Shown one piece after another: positions 2,232-53,141 of a stretch of DNA of 64,000 nucleotides; positions within the stretch are counted from its first letter, which is position 1; every line of letters begins with the position of its first letter. A program made the translations under genes and the position numbers. The stretch spans positions 34,184 to 98,183 of the forward strand of contig CAWIGF010000001.1 in the NCBI GenBank assembly GCA_963835585.1, given 5' to 3'. This stretch comes from an uncultured Candidatus Woesearchaeota archaeon (GTDB taxonomy: Archaea > Nanobdellota > Nanobdellia > Woesearchaeales > UBA10107). The notes beneath the pieces were generated by a model. That model was not told the DNA's origin. It saw only the letters and a program-made list of their open reading frames with translations, and searched no databases.

Positions 2232-3299
2232 TTATTTCTTTTTCTTATGTGCCGAATGTTTTTTCCCTGCCTTGTGCTCATCCTTTTCTTCCTTGTGCAA
2301 GAAAGTTATTTTCTGATGCAGCTTGGCAATATTTTCCCTGTTGATGCTGTTCTTGATCAGGGTATATGCGGTAAATATAGAAATCAGGGCAGCCGCTATC
2401 GAAGCTACAAACAAAAGATTGTTCTTTATCGCACTACCAAGAGATGTCTGGGGTTTTTGGGAACTCATCAAAGAATCACTTATATCACTAAGTCTTGTTT
2501 GTATGACTGCCATCGTCGCGACAGCTGATTGATAATCACCGTTGATCAACGATGTCTGTGCATTTGCCAAATAAGTCGACACTTCCTGAAGGTCGTTCGC
2601 CACAAAATCGCTGACAGTATATCCATTGTTCTTCTTATCATCATATTGCTGTGTAAGAGAATTATATTGTGTGTTTAACTGCGTAAGATTGAGATTCAGC
2701 TGGGTTGCGTTGTATGTCTGAACCTGTTGCTGTGCTTGTGCGGCTACTGATACCTGGCTCACAAATCTATTCAATAAAACACCATTGGATGAAACCTTGA
2801 TAACAAGATCAATCTGACCTGATTTGGTTATGTTTGTGTTCACGAACACATAATCTTTGTCTCCTGCGACAAGTTGCTGGATTGGTATCGCGCTTATTGT
2901 TTCGACACCATCCCCTGATATGTCCGCGCTGATGTTGCTCAAATCGACAGTTCCTGTATTCCTGAACAACACATTGATTTCGCTAACGCCTTGCGTAGTA
3001 TCGGCTGGCGCCATTTTGTCAAGAGTTAATCCTATTGTGCATACAAATCCCGGATCATGACAATTCATGTCTTGGCAAACAACACAGCCTTTATCGCATT
3101 CATTTGCATTGCATGTAATTTGAGGAACCTGACTCTGTTGTGAAGATGATTCATTAGAAACAGAACTTTGATTGCTGACAACAGTCTCGTTTATATGTGT
3201 GACGTTCGTATTTGCCTGCGTTGCATTTGTATCATTATCCGCATGAACCAACGAGAACAATGCCAGCAGAACGACAAAAAACACAAGTGAGCGCTTCAT
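2232..3299 (-). CDS. Secreted or surface-anchored hypothetical protein
   Basis: N-terminal signal peptide (MKRSLVFFVVLLALFSLVHA), many N-X-S/T sequons, Cys-rich segment, C-terminal transmembrane helix plus a basic tail. Confidence 0.5.
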   Translation of the reverse strand: MKRSLVFFVVLLALFSLVHADNDTNATQANTNVTHINETVVSNQSSVSNESSSQQSQVPQITCNANECDKGCVVCQDMNCHDPGFVCTIGLTLDKMAPADTTQGVSEINVLFRNTGTVDLSNISADISGDGVETISAIPIQQLVAGDKDYVFVNTNITKSGQIDLVIKVSSNGVLLNRFVSQVSVAAQAQQQVQTYNATQLNLNLTQLNTQYNSLTQQYDDKKNNGYTVSDFVANDLQEVSTYLANAQTSLINGDYQSAVATMAVIQTRLSDISDSLMSSQKPQTSLGSAIKNNLLFVASIAAALISIFTAYTLIKNSINRENIAKLHQKITFLHKEEKDEHKAGKKHSAHKKKK

Positions 3300-3344
3300 A
3301 TAATTTTGTAAAAGTGTTCAATTTAAAAACCTTACTAATAAGAT

Positions 3345-4100
3345 TTAATAACCGAACCAGAAGAATTGCCTGTACCCGAAGAACTTGTTGGTGTACACCA
3401 TCTCTGTCACGTTTTCGTTGTATGAAACGACTCTTGATTTATTCACGTAAATGTAATCAGTCACGTTCTTGAGTTCTTGTATCTGGTGAGGAACCTGCTG
3501 TATTGCATATGTAATTGGTTCCAAATAGAAGCATTTCTCCCTGTGTGGAGGAGTAGACGTTTGCAACGAGCAAGAGATCGTGTCTGAAGGAGCAAGTGAA
3601 AGTGACCAGTTGAATATTGTACTTGAATACGCATCAATAGTCTTTTCTTCGTCAGATCCATCCTCAACATTTCCGTTTCGTGTGTACTGAAGGTGGAAAA
3701 TGAAATCTCCTGCAATATCCTCTTGATTTGTCACATTGAACGTGCATATTCCCATGCTCTGCCCGTTCTGGACATTTTGTGTATAGGCCGTTGTGAATGT
3801 GTAGTTGTAATTCATCTGCTCGCATCGAGTAGGTCCGTATGGCGTCTTTTCAGTCGTGTATGTTGTCTCAGTCACTTCTTTCTCGACGACGATTGGTTCC
3901 TGCGTCAAATATGTCTGCGTTTGTTGCTTTGTAACTTCGACAACCTGTGAACTCGCATACGCAGAAGTTAAAACATAAAGTATCACAATAACGACAATCC
4001 ATAAAATGATTCGTTTGAGCGGAGAATTACGCGAAGGAATTTTCCTGTTGTCTGACTTGAATTCAGGTTTTTTTGCGTTTGATTTTTTTGATTGCGCCAT
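3345..4100 (-). CDS. Membrane-anchored hypothetical protein
   Basis: Basic N-terminus followed by one transmembrane helix (ILWIVVIVILYVL) and an extracytoplasmic domain with sequons. Confidence 0.45.
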   Translation of the reverse strand: MAQSKKSNAKKPEFKSDNRKIPSRNSPLKRIILWIVVIVILYVLTSAYASSQVVEVTKQQTQTYLTQEPIVVEKEVTETTYTTEKTPYGPTRCEQMNYNYTFTTAYTQNVQNGQSMGICTFNVTNQEDIAGDFIFHLQYTRNGNVEDGSDEEKTIDAYSSTIFNWSLSLAPSDTISCSLQTSTPPHREKCFYLEPITYAIQQVPHQIQELKNVTDYIYVNKSRVVSYNENVTEMVYTNKFFGYRQFFWFGY

Positions 4101-49188: not shown

Positions 49189-49656
49189 TTATTGGGAAGA
49201 GGACCCATTTTCTTCGATTAGCCTATTCTTGTTATTTTCAGAAGGAATCACTTCAGAAATTTTGCAAGTCGCGAATCCCTTTGTTTTTTCATCATTTTGC
49301 AATACAAATGAACCGTTATAGGCAAAAGAACTGCCATTTTCTGTTTGATGCGTCTCGATTGGATCACCAAAATTGTAATCAACTCGGCCATGTGGAGACA
49401 TTACAAGAAATTCCAAACTTTCGTCAGAAAGATTTCCCAATAGGACCAAATCTGAATCACAAGAATGGCATGAAGCCTTTCCTTTGCATGCAACTGTACC
49501 CTGTATTCTTTTATTGTTGAATAGTTTGTAAAAATTTCCGGAATAAGCCATCCGTATCCCATGTGAATTTGACTCAACTTCAATTTTATATTCTGTTCTT
49601 GATGGTTGTCTGTGACATGAACCTGAACTGTAACACACTTTAATTCCCCATATCAT
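49189..49656 (-). CDS. Hypothetical protein
   Basis: 155 aa. Cys/His-containing. Overlaps the thermosome stop. Confidence 0.35.
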   Translation of the reverse strand: MIWGIKVCYSSGSCHRQPSRTEYKIEVESNSHGIRMAYSGNFYKLFNNKRIQGTVACKGKASCHSCDSDLVLLGNLSDESLEFLVMSPHGRVDYNFGDPIETHQTENGSSFAYNGSFVLQNDEKTKGFATCKISEVIPSENNKNRLIEENGSSSQ

Positions 49657-51288
49657 CCATGTTCATTGGCTTTTGCATCGGCTGGTTCTGTCCTGACGCA
49701 ATAACATCATCGATTCTCAGAATCATCTCGGCAACTTCCGCTGCGGAGGAAACAGCCTGCGTCTTTATTTTCAACGGTTCAATTATTCCTTCGTCCCATG
49801 CATCAATTATTTTTCCGGTGAACACATCGATTCCTGCCCATTTGACCCCTTTGTCATGGGCAACTTTCAGATCTGTAAGGACATCAATTGGATCGAGCCC
49901 CGCATTTTCCGCGAGCGTTATCGGAATGATTTCCATCGCATCGGCGAAAGCGAGTACTGCCAACTGCTCCCTGCCGCTCAACGAAGTAGCGAATAATCGC
50001 AGGTTTCGTGCAACTTCAACTTCGCATGCTCCTGCACCTGCGACAACTCTTCCTGATTTTATTGCAGCGACCAAGTCACCTATCGCGTCTTCCATTGCCC
50101 GCTTAACTTCCGCGACAATATGCTCAGTTCCTCCCTTAACTAGAATCGTTACTGACTTTGACAAGCTTGTGCCGCTCACGTACGTTACATTATCATCTCC
50201 CATCTTCCGTTCCTCGACAATTTCTGCATATCCCAAATCGGATGAGCTCAAGTCAGAGAGCTTTGTTACAATCGCTGCTCCTGTTGCTCTCGCTAATTTT
50301 GCCATGTCCGATTTCTTTACCCTTCTGCATGCATAAATGCTATGCTTTGCGAGATAATGCTGAGCCAATTCATCTATTCCTTTCTGACAGAACACAACAT
50401 TGACATGCAATGAGGACAATTTGTCGACCATTTCCTTTATGATCCGTTCCTCAGTCTCTAGGAACGAGTGCAGTTGCGATGGGTCCGTGATTTGTATTTT
50501 CGCTTCTATCTCAGTATTCTTTATTTCAAGAGCAGAATCAATCAATGCTATCTTCGGATTTGCCAGTTTCTGGGGCATTCCGGAATGAACTTTTTCCTTG
50601 TCGAGAATAAGACCCTCAATTATCTCTGAGTCCTCGACACTATTCCCTATCTTCTTCTCTATCGCGATATCGTCGCGCTCGATGACAAAATTTCCTTTTT
50701 CATCTTTTTCAATGACTTTTATAAGTGCCTTCAGGCACAGCAGGGAAAGTTTTTCTTTCGCAACCTCTGCCCCCTTTCCAGTCATTGCCGTCAATGCTAT
50801 CTTCTTCAATAAATCAAGATTTCGCTCGTCAATATGCTCGGAAATATTCCTCAATATAATCTGCGTTTTTTCCTCCGCAATCCTGTATCCCTTTACAATG
50901 ATGGTTGGATGAATATTTTTGTCGAGAAGAGTTTCTGCCTGTTTGAGCAATTCTCCTGCAAGAACAGCTGCCGTCGTCGTTCCGTCTCCAACAACTTCTT
51001 CCTGTGTCTTCGCAACTTCGACAAGCATTTTTGCGGCTGGATGATCCATCTGCATTTCCCTCAGGATTGTCGCGCCATCATTCGTGATGGTGATATCCCC
51101 AAGCGCGTCAACAAGCATCTTGTCCATTCCTTTTGGACCCAATGTTGTCCTGACTGTTTCCGCTACTAACTTTGCGGCCGCAATATTATTTCTTTGGGCA
51201 GACCTTCCTGTGGTCCTGGTTGTGCTTTCAGGTAGAATGAATATTGGTTGAACGTCTTTAGCCATCTTTCCCTCAATGAGTACGCTAA
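49640..51288 (-). CDS. ths: Thermosome (group II chaperonin) subunit
   Basis: N-terminal [13 protein letters not shown]... and motifs [15 protein letters not shown], long collinear match. Own TATA (tttataaata) about 20 nt upstream of the ATG. The ORF track fuses it to the upstream transposase. Confidence 0.9.
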
Positions 51289-51324
51289 CCACCCTATCCT
51301 TATTTATAAAGGTTATCATGGTCA

Positions 51325-52141
51325 GGCTCTGTCCTAAAAGTCGGTAAAGCCAAGAAAATAAGTTATGGCAGACTAGCCGCAAATATACTTCTGTGCGGAT
51401 TGTCCGCACAGTTTTGGAGCTGACACTAGCTCCAAACTTGCGTTTTATACTGCTGTTGCTTGATTCAACAAGCGATCTTCGATGATACGTTCTCAATCGA
51501 TACTGCCTCGCCATTTTCTTACGATAACGACCTCGCTTTGCGTTCTTTTTCGCTGGAACCATGAGCACCATGTTGTGCTCATGCGCAAACTTGAACAAAT
51601 ACTCGGCAGAATATCCTTTGTCTGCCACAGCAATCCTCGGATTACTGTTTTTTAAGAGAAATTTCGCATCCTTGATGTCGTGTGCTGGAAGCACACGAAT
51701 CTTCGCAGCGCAGAATTTCTTTTTTCGCGTGTCGAATGCTGTGCTTAGTTTGATGGGAATACAAGGGAAATTCCCGTCGATGCGCTTCAGATAATGATAG
51801 CTCGGATTTGTCCTCGACAAACCTGTGCTGTCGATGGCAACGAGATGCGAGTTGCCACAAGTTATGCTCAATATTTTCTGCCAGAAAGCTGTATCGAGTT
51901 TTGCAGCGGTATACTGCAACGCTGATTTGCTTGGGCATCGTATGCCAAGCAAATCGCAGTGTTCCCGGACCCTGCGATAGGACAATCTGCAATATGCCTT
52001 GATGATCAGTGCGTGCAAATGCTCCAGAAATTCATACGTCTTCGGTCCGAAATGGTGCAGCCATCTCGGACAGCCCAATCTCCTCAACAAACGCTTAAGT
52101 TTTTGTATTAGTTTTGTTTCTTTTCCCATGTGGGGGTTCAC
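51325..52141 (-). CDS. IS5-family DDE transposase whose ORF lacks a stop inside the element
   Basis: N-terminal HTH-like region. DDE-like residues in IDSTG, ADKGY, ESSNSSIKR. The ORF runs through the terminal repeat and in frame into the thermosome gene, giving the 833 aa track ORF. Confidence 0.7.
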
Positions 52142-52214
52142 TCCCCACCCCAGAACAGCCTAGCGGCTGTCTGGGTTATTAGTTTTATGAATTACAGAGA
52201 TTTAGGACAGAGCC
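51325..52214 (-). mobile_element. IS5-family insertion sequence (about 890 bp) with 14 bp terminal inverted repeats and 9 bp target duplication TCATGGTCA
   Basis: Left end GGCTCTGTCCTAAA (51325-51338). Right end TTTAGGACAGAGCC (52201-52214). Direct repeats at 51316-51324 and 52215-52223. Confidence 0.75.
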
Positions 52215-52262
52215 TCATGGTCAATAAAGCTTAAATATATCCCTCCGAAAAAGAGAAATCCT

Positions 52263-53141
52263 ATGGGGAAAAACTCAGTACTTTCCAATATTGTTATCAA
52301 ACAAGAAGAAGAAAAAATCACAGCACATGCAGACTATATGCCACTTCGTATTGATTCCGAGAACTTCGTTCGTCTTACACATGATCGAAATCCAATCCAC
52401 TACAAACTTCCTATATGCAACGAGGCAATTGCTCCAGGGTTCATGCACACGACAGCTGCGTTGGCATTGCTCTCAGAAATCATGCGTAATGATAATGACC
52501 ATTTCCCCAGATACTGGATTCAAGAAGTTAACATGAATGGTGTGGTCATTACAGGTATTCCACACAAAACGGAGACGACATTCGACCCAAAAAATAAGAT
52601 ACAGATTTCAAACATCTTAAATCCAAAGAATAGTGTGCAATGCAGCATTAAAAATTCAGGCTACGATATATGGCAAGACATTCCTTTACCATCCGCAACC
52701 CTCATACATCAGGATCACATAGAAATCCCAGACGAATCAGTACTTTCAGATTTTGGAAGCATACTAAATCCGAATCTCAACGGCATGCAAACTCCATTCT
52801 ATGCGCTCGCTTGTGCATCATCAGTTGTCTTCTCCGCGATAGATGCCAAAAAAATACGTAATCCTGCACAAGAAGTGATGAACATGTATGCTAGTCAGCA
52901 CATTCAAACAGATATGGAAACTCTAAAATCCATAAAAAAAAGCATGACACTGGATTTTTACCTCTCTGAACCAGACAAGTTCGGCGTAATCTCTCCTTCG
53001 ACGATAGATATGTGCGTCATAGGAAAAAATGAGAACGGAGAGGTGGCATACATCGTCTCTGCGCCGCTAGCATTCAAGGAAGAAGCCCGCATGATGAAGT
53101 TGATAAGACGGTATTTGAAGCAGATAACGCCCACGCAATGA
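52263..53141 (+). CDS. MaoC-like/hot-dog fold protein (tentative)
   Basis: MaoC-like segment DRNPIHYKLPICNEAIAPGFMHTT. Confidence 0.35.
   Translation: MGKNSVLSNIVIKQEEEKITAHADYMPLRIDSENFVRLTHDRNPIHYKLPICNEAIAPGFMHTTAALALLSEIMRNDNDHFPRYWIQEVNMNGVVITGIPHKTETTFDPKNKIQISNILNPKNSVQCSIKNSGYDIWQDIPLPSATLIHQDHIEIPDESVLSDFGSILNPNLNGMQTPFYALACASSVVFSAIDAKKIRNPAQEVMNMYASQHIQTDMETLKSIKKSMTLDFYLSEPDKFGVISPSTIDMCVIGKNENGEVAYIVSAPLAFKEEARMMKLIRRYLKQITPTQ

Follow-up and report, generated by a model that had tools for sequence, protein, structure and literature searches.

An IS903-like insertion sequence of DPANN archaea with an open-ended transposase frame and insertion sites beside host core promoters

In a 64,000-nucleotide stretch of DNA from an uncultured Woesearchaeota archaeon (hereafter the window, meaning the whole of this stretch), an insertion sequence (IS) of 890 bp lies between the gene for the thermosome, a group II chaperonin, and a divergently oriented gene, and its transposase reading frame passes into the thermosome without meeting a stop codon. 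This locus is very probably explained by two properties of the family to which the element belongs, namely a transposase frame that is left open at the end of the element and the selection of target sites next to the archaeal core promoter, composed of the B recognition element (BRE) and the TATA box. Judging from the sequence of this copy and its relatives, the position at the thermosome promoter would be the family's specific target and not an accident, a point that was overlooked in the first-pass annotation of this DNA.

Insertion sites in the family and in the window

The insertion sites were studied in 106 related loci (designated by L numbers), among which both terminal inverted repeats (IRs) could be located in 87 distinct elements of 882–914 bp. 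These 87 loci yield 143 distinct outward flanks, in which offsets are counted from the element end and which were queried with the TATA octamer TTTATAWA, either exact or with at most one mismatch. Many of the protein tails that follow the transposase read xxxxx[L/I/V]YK, which back-translates to a TATA box about 15 nt past the element. The flank consensus has the same content on both sides of the element: positions 1–9 are nearly free (position 1 is rarely A and position 9 is often C), positions 10–15 read RAAAMM, a BRE-like and A-rich stretch, positions 16–23 read TTTATAAA, and the profile carries no information beyond position 24. The exact octamer starts at offset 16 in 35 of the 143 flanks (background 3.7e-4 per position) and, when one mismatch is allowed, in 59 of them, where about 0.4 would be expected by chance (background 2.8e-3 per position). 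At the neighbouring offsets 15, 17, 18 and 19 the corresponding one-mismatch counts are 1, 5, 2 and 2.

This peak is found alike on left and right flanks and is independent of the orientation of the element. The motif occurs on at least one side in 13 of 14 insertions with a verified target-site duplication (TSD), usually on one side only, which may be either. Members of distant clades with 41–64% identity show the same geometry (L018, L020, L023, L024, and L096), and three of them (L018, L096, and L023) have verified 9-bp TSDs in addition to the 14 cases; another relative with 56% identity (L022) carries a one-mismatch TATA box at offset 16.

The motif corresponds to the promoter of the host. 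Within the window, 12 genes have TTTATAWA exactly 30–31 nt before the ATG, with A at −3/−4 and a purine (R) at −6 relative to the octamer, and the same pattern recurs in the IS flanks; the spacing, as read in the sequence, points to leaderless mRNAs. The published archaeal consensus for BRE (RRAAA) and TATA is likewise close to the flank motif (PMC6640164). An outward open reading frame (ORF) is present within 140 nt in 29 of 37 flanks with a TATA box, and the modal distance from TATA to start is 28–33 nt, as expected for leaderless genes. The genes concerned are diverse and unrelated host genes, including those for aIF5A, SerRS, prefoldin, Nop5, a glycosyltransferase, DegT and others.

At the window locus (Table 1) the TATA box of the divergent gene starts at the canonical offset of 16 from the IS end. 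On the thermosome side the IS ends 14 bp from the TATA octamer, which starts at offset 15; the first-pass annotation had recognized the proximity to this promoter and had put the distance at about 15 bp. When the IS and one copy of the TSD are removed, the reconstructed empty site reads TTTATAAA-ggtta-TCATGGTCA-ataaag-CTTAAATA, with the two TATA boxes back to back and 20 bp apart, and the insertion target would be the 20-bp spacer between them. An uninterrupted form of this promoter, for which the earlier annotation had proposed a search, occurs in an IS-free relative (GCA_964351255.1, locus L109): it reads TTTATAAA-N20-TTTAAATA and is collinear with the window minus the IS and one TSD copy, and its thermosome, 84% identical, is a stand-alone gene of 541 aa. 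The BRE and TATA box of both divergent genes are intact after the insertion. The 45-nt spacing from TATA to ATG in the thermosome is accompanied by a GAGGG Shine-Dalgarno-like sequence.

An altered regulation of the thermosome could be regarded as the main consequence of the insertion, either through the displacement of upstream sites by 899 bp or through transcription from the IS into the promoter. The short distance between the IS end and the TATA box, the transposase gene directed into the thermosome promoter and the divergent promoters, which are now about 0.9 kb apart, speak for it. It is nevertheless rather unlikely, as the BRE, the TATA box and the 5' untranslated region (5'UTR) are preserved and collinear with those of the IS-free relative, and the family sits at the same position beside many essential genes (aIF5A, SerRS, Nop5, prefoldin, and ribosomal protein S8e), suggesting that such insertions are generally tolerated.

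Target selection, survivorship and possible mechanisms

In the proposed model the family would place its 9-bp staggered cut directly upstream of an archaeal core promoter. Outward from either end of the element the order would be the 9-bp duplication, RAAAMM and then TTTATAWA from position 16, and the host gene, directed away from the IS, would usually begin about 30 nt after the start of the TATA box. We infer that the transposition machinery itself selects these targets, and that the precise placement results from this choice.

Insertion might instead be essentially random, with only the neutral sites upstream of promoters surviving in gene-dense genomes. All the data do come from natural insertions that have passed through selection; the gaps between genes are very small (98 bp at the window locus) and neighbouring genes lie within 0–40 nt of the site at several loci; and an insertion less than 6 bp from the TATA box would destroy the BRE. 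Such a filter leaves the sharp far side of the peak inexplicable (from 59 flanks at offset 16 down to 5, 2, and 2 over offsets 17–19), and it accounts neither for canonical placement where this is harmful nor for the repeated use of identical 9-mers. With regard to harm, the canonical offset is kept at two loci (L011 and L015) although the upstream gene's stop codon and the TSD overlap, and at another (L019) an aIF6-like gene has lost its last codons to a canonical insertion. At L005 (around 2916–3805), with a verified duplication, the IS has come to lie between a TTTATAAA box and the gene that this box should drive, a metallophosphoesterase-like ORF whose ATG is 32 nt from the TATA box in the reconstructed empty site. 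Here the IS lies downstream of the TATA box; TATA octamers are palindromic and archaeal BRE-TATA-BRE arrangements can work bidirectionally (PMC6640164), which may explain this case. As to the 9-mers, one and the same promoter-proximal sequence seems in each case to have been hit repeatedly at L010/L087, L028, L041 plus L043/L045, and L075 plus L081. Survivorship alone is therefore very improbable; the form of the offset distribution and the canonical insertions that do harm led to its rejection, and the pattern is read as target selection on the basis of the sharp far side, the harmful canonical sites and the repeated 9-mers.

Several points weigh against target selection as a complete account. 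The thermosome-side TATA box of the window is 1 nt closer to the element than the family norm. A matching duplication on both sides was found in only 15 of 79 contigs with two flanks (the remaining 8 of the 87 loci have one flank only); the non-matching contigs are probably chimeric assemblies formed via a multi-copy repeat, or recombinants, and most flanks are therefore single-ended observations. The motif is absent from about half of the flanks and from one verified insertion (L037), and in the same genome as the window a canonical TATA box is read through in only 2–3 of 12 right-flank tails. At L062 a miniature inverted-repeat transposable element (MITE) of 121 bp, with its own verified duplication, lies 9 bp from the IS end with no TATA box nearby, and an existing IS end may thus attract insertions too. 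Lastly, all of the insertions are survivors from natural populations, and selection against disruption of the BRE may sharpen the near side of the peak.

Two further observations concern the flanks. Head-to-tail junctions, element to element or element to MITE and exactly 9 bp apart, are present at L010, L033, L039, L062, L063, L075, L087, and L099. In the four cases that can be resolved, the 9-mer of the junction recurs beside a canonical BRE/TATA; these junctions could stem from a promoter that was hit more than once or from attraction to an existing IS end, or they could be dimer or circle junctions. Some flanks without a TATA box resemble the ends of tRNA genes (...GGGGATTTGAACCCCGGAC...; right flanks of L022 and L057, left flank of L069), and some insertions therefore adjoin tRNA genes.

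Target selection beside the core promoter could be achieved in several ways: by direct read-out of the flanking BRE/TATA DNA, by an extension of the preference of IS903 for A/T-rich bases beside its 9-bp target, or by docking on promoter DNA that is bound and bent by the TATA-binding protein (TBP) and transcription factor B (TFB). The last option, in which the transposase or transpososome would recognize the TBP/TFB-bound promoter and integrate at the upstream edge of the complex, is put forward tentatively, as one possibility that falls short of being favoured; direct read-out of the DNA is at least as likely as a protein contact. Whichever the mechanism, promoter targeting is probably a safe-haven strategy in a gene-dense genome of about 1 Mb.

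The element, its open reading frame and the junction with the thermosome

The 890-bp element appears to be an intact and recently active IS copy of the IS5 family, similar to IS903. The limits given in the first-pass annotation (length, IR and 9-bp TSD) proved correct: the 14-nt IR GGCTCTGTCCTAAA is perfect, the window holds no match to it with 2 mismatches or fewer apart from these two copies, and the pair can be extended imperfectly to 24 nt with 88% identity. The assignment to the IS5 family is also supported. The transposase ORF matches Pfam DDE_Tnp_1 (PF01609; 7.5e-14, 52 bits, cut-off 23), and the Y-2-R-3-E-6-K motif can be read directly in the translation as YHRRSLVESSNSSIK; its top NCBIfam model is NF033579 (IS5; 2.3e-33), where its 116 bits fall short of the curated cut-off of 140. 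Further traits of the family are the short terminal IRs, the direct target duplication at the flanks and the single ORF. The ORF of 833 aa that had been listed for this region (minus strand, 49640..52141) is obtained when counting from a GTG; homologues begin at the ATG equivalent to 52129, which would thus seem to be the true start and gives 829 aa.

Table 1. Coordinates of the insertion sequence and its surroundings in the window.
Feature	Position	Strand	Description
Thermosome (group II chaperonin)	49640..51265	-	541 aa; separate gene with its own promoter; Pfam Cpn60_TCP1 3.4e-173
Host-DNA linker	51266..51325	-	20 codons (TSD copy, BRE, TATA, 5'UTR) in the transposase frame, into the thermosome ATG
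Thermosome core promoter	51303..51316	-	TATA TTTATAAA 51303-51310; BRE-like ATAACC 51311-51316; 45 nt before ATG
TSD, thermosome-side copy	51316..51324		9 bp, TCATGGTCA
Insertion sequence, complete	51325..52214	- (transposase strand)	890 bp; IS5 family, IS903-like; IR pair and TSD; 87 relatives; IS-free relative
Right terminal IR	51325..51338	-	Codes for the conserved C-terminal ...LLGQS; its final base opens the following codon
Transposase core	51326..52129	-	268 codons, ATG 52129 to ...GQS; DDE domain; no stop
Leader hairpins, two adjacent	52130..52175	-	H1 52175-52165 with 52160-52149; H2 52148-52143 with 52135-52130
TATA-like TTCATAAA within the IS	52184..52191	-	62 nt 5' of the transposase ATG; candidate transposase promoter (inference only)
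Left terminal IR, transposase-proximal	52201..52214	-	GGCTCTGTCCTAAA on the minus strand; 13/16 positions as in the IS903B IR GGCTTTGTTGAATAAATC
TSD, copy toward the gene at 52263	52215..52223		9 bp, TCATGGTCA
Core promoter of the divergent gene	52224..52237	+	BRE-like ATAAAG 52224-52229; TATA CTTAAATA 52230-52237; 33 nt before ATG 52263
Divergent gene	52263..53141	+	292 aa; function unknown; no Pfam hit

No stop codon occurs within the element, as had been noted at first, and the transposase frame crosses the right IR into host DNA. A protein search returned 854 homologues of the transposase, mostly from groundwater and sediment metagenomes, the few that are named coming from metagenome-assembled genomes (MAGs) of Woesearchaeota or Nanoarchaeota. 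In nearly all of the homologues retrieved the core ends in ...RLLGQS, after which come tails of up to some 50 residues that are unrelated to each other. The tails start with L, P, H, Q, or R, as would be expected with the final C of the IR opening the following codon. At the DNA level the frame passes the whole IR without a stop in 76 of the 87 related elements; in the other 11 a stop is found inside the element, mostly a TAG contained in the IR in another frame. The tails have a median length of 8 codons (range 1–66), most of them consisting of 1–30 arbitrary codons, and the window copy is an outlier at 561.

The genome from which the window derives holds 11 copies, on contigs of 339,840 bp (which includes the window) and 681,493 bp, all with identical 268-aa cores and all with different tails; the ten copies other than that of the window were compared by their protein tails (right flanks). 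Identical cores with different tails indicate that the element has been recently active and that its stop is normally supplied by the flank, and the 11 identical cores together with the 76 open frames of the family exclude a sequencing error. Translation of the transposase would end at the first stop in the adjoining host DNA, giving each copy its own arbitrary C-terminal tail. A stop supplied by the flanking DNA, one of the options raised in the first-pass annotation, thus seems to be the normal state in the clade of the window copy, in which frames are open throughout and other copies end in differing flanks. The in-IR TAG (TTTAGGAC), in the other frame, ends the transposase at the right ends of L006, L015, L019, L022, L066, L069, L091, and L093. 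This minority suggests that in the main clade a change of frame close to the 3' end gave rise to the open-ended form.

The GC-rich leader hairpins follow the left repeat and precede the ATG, the second (H2) ending directly at the ATG and pairing a Shine-Dalgarno-like GGAGG/GGGG stretch with the bases just before the start codon. When 53 distinct leaders were folded singly, 51 had the 6 nt just upstream of the ATG in paired form, and the stem sequences differ widely. RNAalifold gave no consensus on MAFFT alignments of the leaders, which are not structure-aware, and no Rfam family was found for the leader region. The predicted hairpins may mask translation initiation on read-through transcripts. 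Non-autonomous derivatives bearing the IRs of the family are also present, with 121 bp (L062:932-1052), 163 bp (L063:366-528), and 528 bp (L026:2910-3437); the last shows an apparent duplication of 6 bp (CCCATA), not 9 bp, and keeps a 6-nt spacer before TTTAAATA.

With respect to the thermosome, the in-frame junction described in the first-pass annotation was confirmed; its linker comprises 20 codons, not the 18 counted originally. The transposase frame runs into the thermosome because the TATA box starts at offset 15, the ATG follows at 45 nt and no stop intervenes. With the canonical geometry (offset 16 and 30–31 nt from TATA to ATG), the transposase would not share the reading frame of the host gene. 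Run-ins to a downstream ORF occur in 3 of the 11 genomic copies, the partners being the thermosome, ribosomal protein S8e (S8e domain, Pfam 8.5e-33) and an unknown ORF. Among 83 metagenomic tails, of which 77 end within the contig, a complete run-in is seen only in the window copy; the tail of L080 is also in frame with a downstream ORF but leaves its contig. Public gene calls merge the transposase and the host gene (P0130, P0121, and P0125; the merged proteins have 829 aa for the thermosome, 413 aa for S8e, and 390 aa for the unknown ORF). The merged call of 829 aa at 49640-52129 on the minus strand results from the missing stop and is an artefact of annotation, one that is systematic for this IS family.

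A functional or regulated transposase–thermosome fusion, or a frame kept open in order to make fusions, is very improbable. It might be argued from the uninterrupted frame of 829 codons, from the entry of 3 of the 11 copies into downstream ORFs and from the public call of a single 829-aa protein with the junction ...LLGQSLTMITFINK...GKMAK. The partners, however, are unrelated to each other, most tails are short and arbitrary, the canonical geometry should give no in-frame product, the thermosome retains its own BRE, TATA box and 5'UTR, and its orthologue in the IS-free relative stands alone. The fusion had been considered earlier as a possible product; the arbitrary tails and the chance recurrence of run-ins lend it no support as a meaningful product, and the in-frame ORF seems to be an incidental accident of geometry. 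Traces of a fusion protein are possible if IS transcripts read through, with nothing pointing to a function.

The conservation of a motif at a fixed distance from both ends might suggest that BRE and TATA are part of a longer mobile element (e.g., an outward promoter of the IS) and not host DNA, an idea that deserves practically no credence: verified 9-bp duplications sit between the IR and the motif, which is therefore not part of the element, and moreover the motif usually stands on one side only, matches the host promoter consensus and precedes unrelated host genes, the 9-mers and the sequence past position 24 are unrelated between copies, and both TATA boxes are present in the relative that lacks the IS. 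The motif as a part of the element was rejected on the positions of the duplications.

Relation to known elements and significance

The similarity to IS903 rests on the terminal repeats and the 9-bp duplication. In both, one DDE transposase ORF takes up the element, and the 9-bp TSD of the IS903 group is found in the window copy. The IR of IS903B is GGCTTTGTTGAATAAATC, with a 9-bp duplication (PMC10569121); the window IR GGCTCTGTCCTAAATC shares 13 of 16 positions with it, and the IR of the distant member L023, GGCTTTGTTGAAAAAGTC, shares 16 of 18. The target motif of IS903 is WTTYA-N9-TRAAW, with A/T-rich bases flanking the duplication, as quoted second-hand (PMC2577343), and the A-rich positions 11–13 of the DPANN element may descend from a preference of this type. 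In contrast to IS903, the signal of the DPANN element extends 14 bp past the duplication, corresponds to the archaeal BRE and TATA box and is sufficient on one side; the element also differs in its DPANN archaeal hosts, its shorter length and the absence of an internal stop. The nearest named relatives are archaeal IS5-family or IS5-like elements (ISHvo2, ISHla2, and others) with 26–31% identity among the best 25 of 103 matches in a tblastn search of plasmids, and IS903 is not among these 25. Inverted-repeat searches around two of these relatives, ISHvo2 (pHV4) and an IS5 of Methanomethylovorans, revealed no clear ends.

An open frame is also known from IS1239 of Streptococcus pyogenes, in which the transposase frame leaves the element and ends in flanking DNA, giving polymorphic C-termini (PMC13630536). 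There the trait comes from a lineage-specific 1-bp deletion in one species (PMC13630536), whereas in the DPANN element it is shared by a large clade (76 of 87 elements). From the available sequences the family appears to be widespread in DPANN archaea, with members in MAGs of Woesearchaeota and Nanoarchaeota. Contigs with an IS of the DPANN type also occur in MAGs labelled Methanosarcinales, Kosmotogaceae, and Draconibacterium (L003, L005, L009, L013, L014, L016, L018, and L021); these labels are probably due to mis-binning of short repeat contigs and do not represent the true host range.

The closest parallel in target choice is offered by Ty3 and other retrotransposons that insert beside RNA polymerase III promoters, including the Dictyostelium TRE elements. 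Ty3 is targeted through TFIIIB, composed of TBP and the TFIIB-related Brf1, at RNA polymerase III promoters, and both Ty3 and TRE find safe havens near polymerase III genes in compact genomes. The likeness comprises a fixed, base-precise distance from a site bound by TBP and a factor of the TFIIB family, independence of orientation, the sparing of coding sequence and a gene-dense genome. The difference is that Ty3 and TRE are eukaryotic retroelements whose integrases are tethered by proven protein contacts, whereas the DPANN element is a small prokaryotic DDE IS known from sequence. In the literature searched, including a 2026 survey of archaeal IS, no report of promoter or TATA targeting by an archaeal IS was found. 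The features that would be new are a full BRE plus TATA at a constant distance, a signal that suffices on one side, and the hosts among the archaea.

The choice of target site decides the damage that a mobile element does. Stop-less elements such as this create chimeric gene calls, which annotation pipelines should split. With 890 bp and a transposase of 268 aa, the element, which would locate the site 6 bp upstream of a TATA box, is a very small system in which a DDE enzyme might read either the shape or sequence of DNA or a TBP/TFB complex, and it might be developed into a tool for promoter-proximal insertion in archaea. If recognition of TBP/TFB were true, the element would be the first transposon in prokaryotes to be steered by the basal transcription machinery, convergent with Ty3 and TFIIIB. 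In the uncultured DPANN archaea themselves, the element would act as a natural marker of promoters in their genomes.

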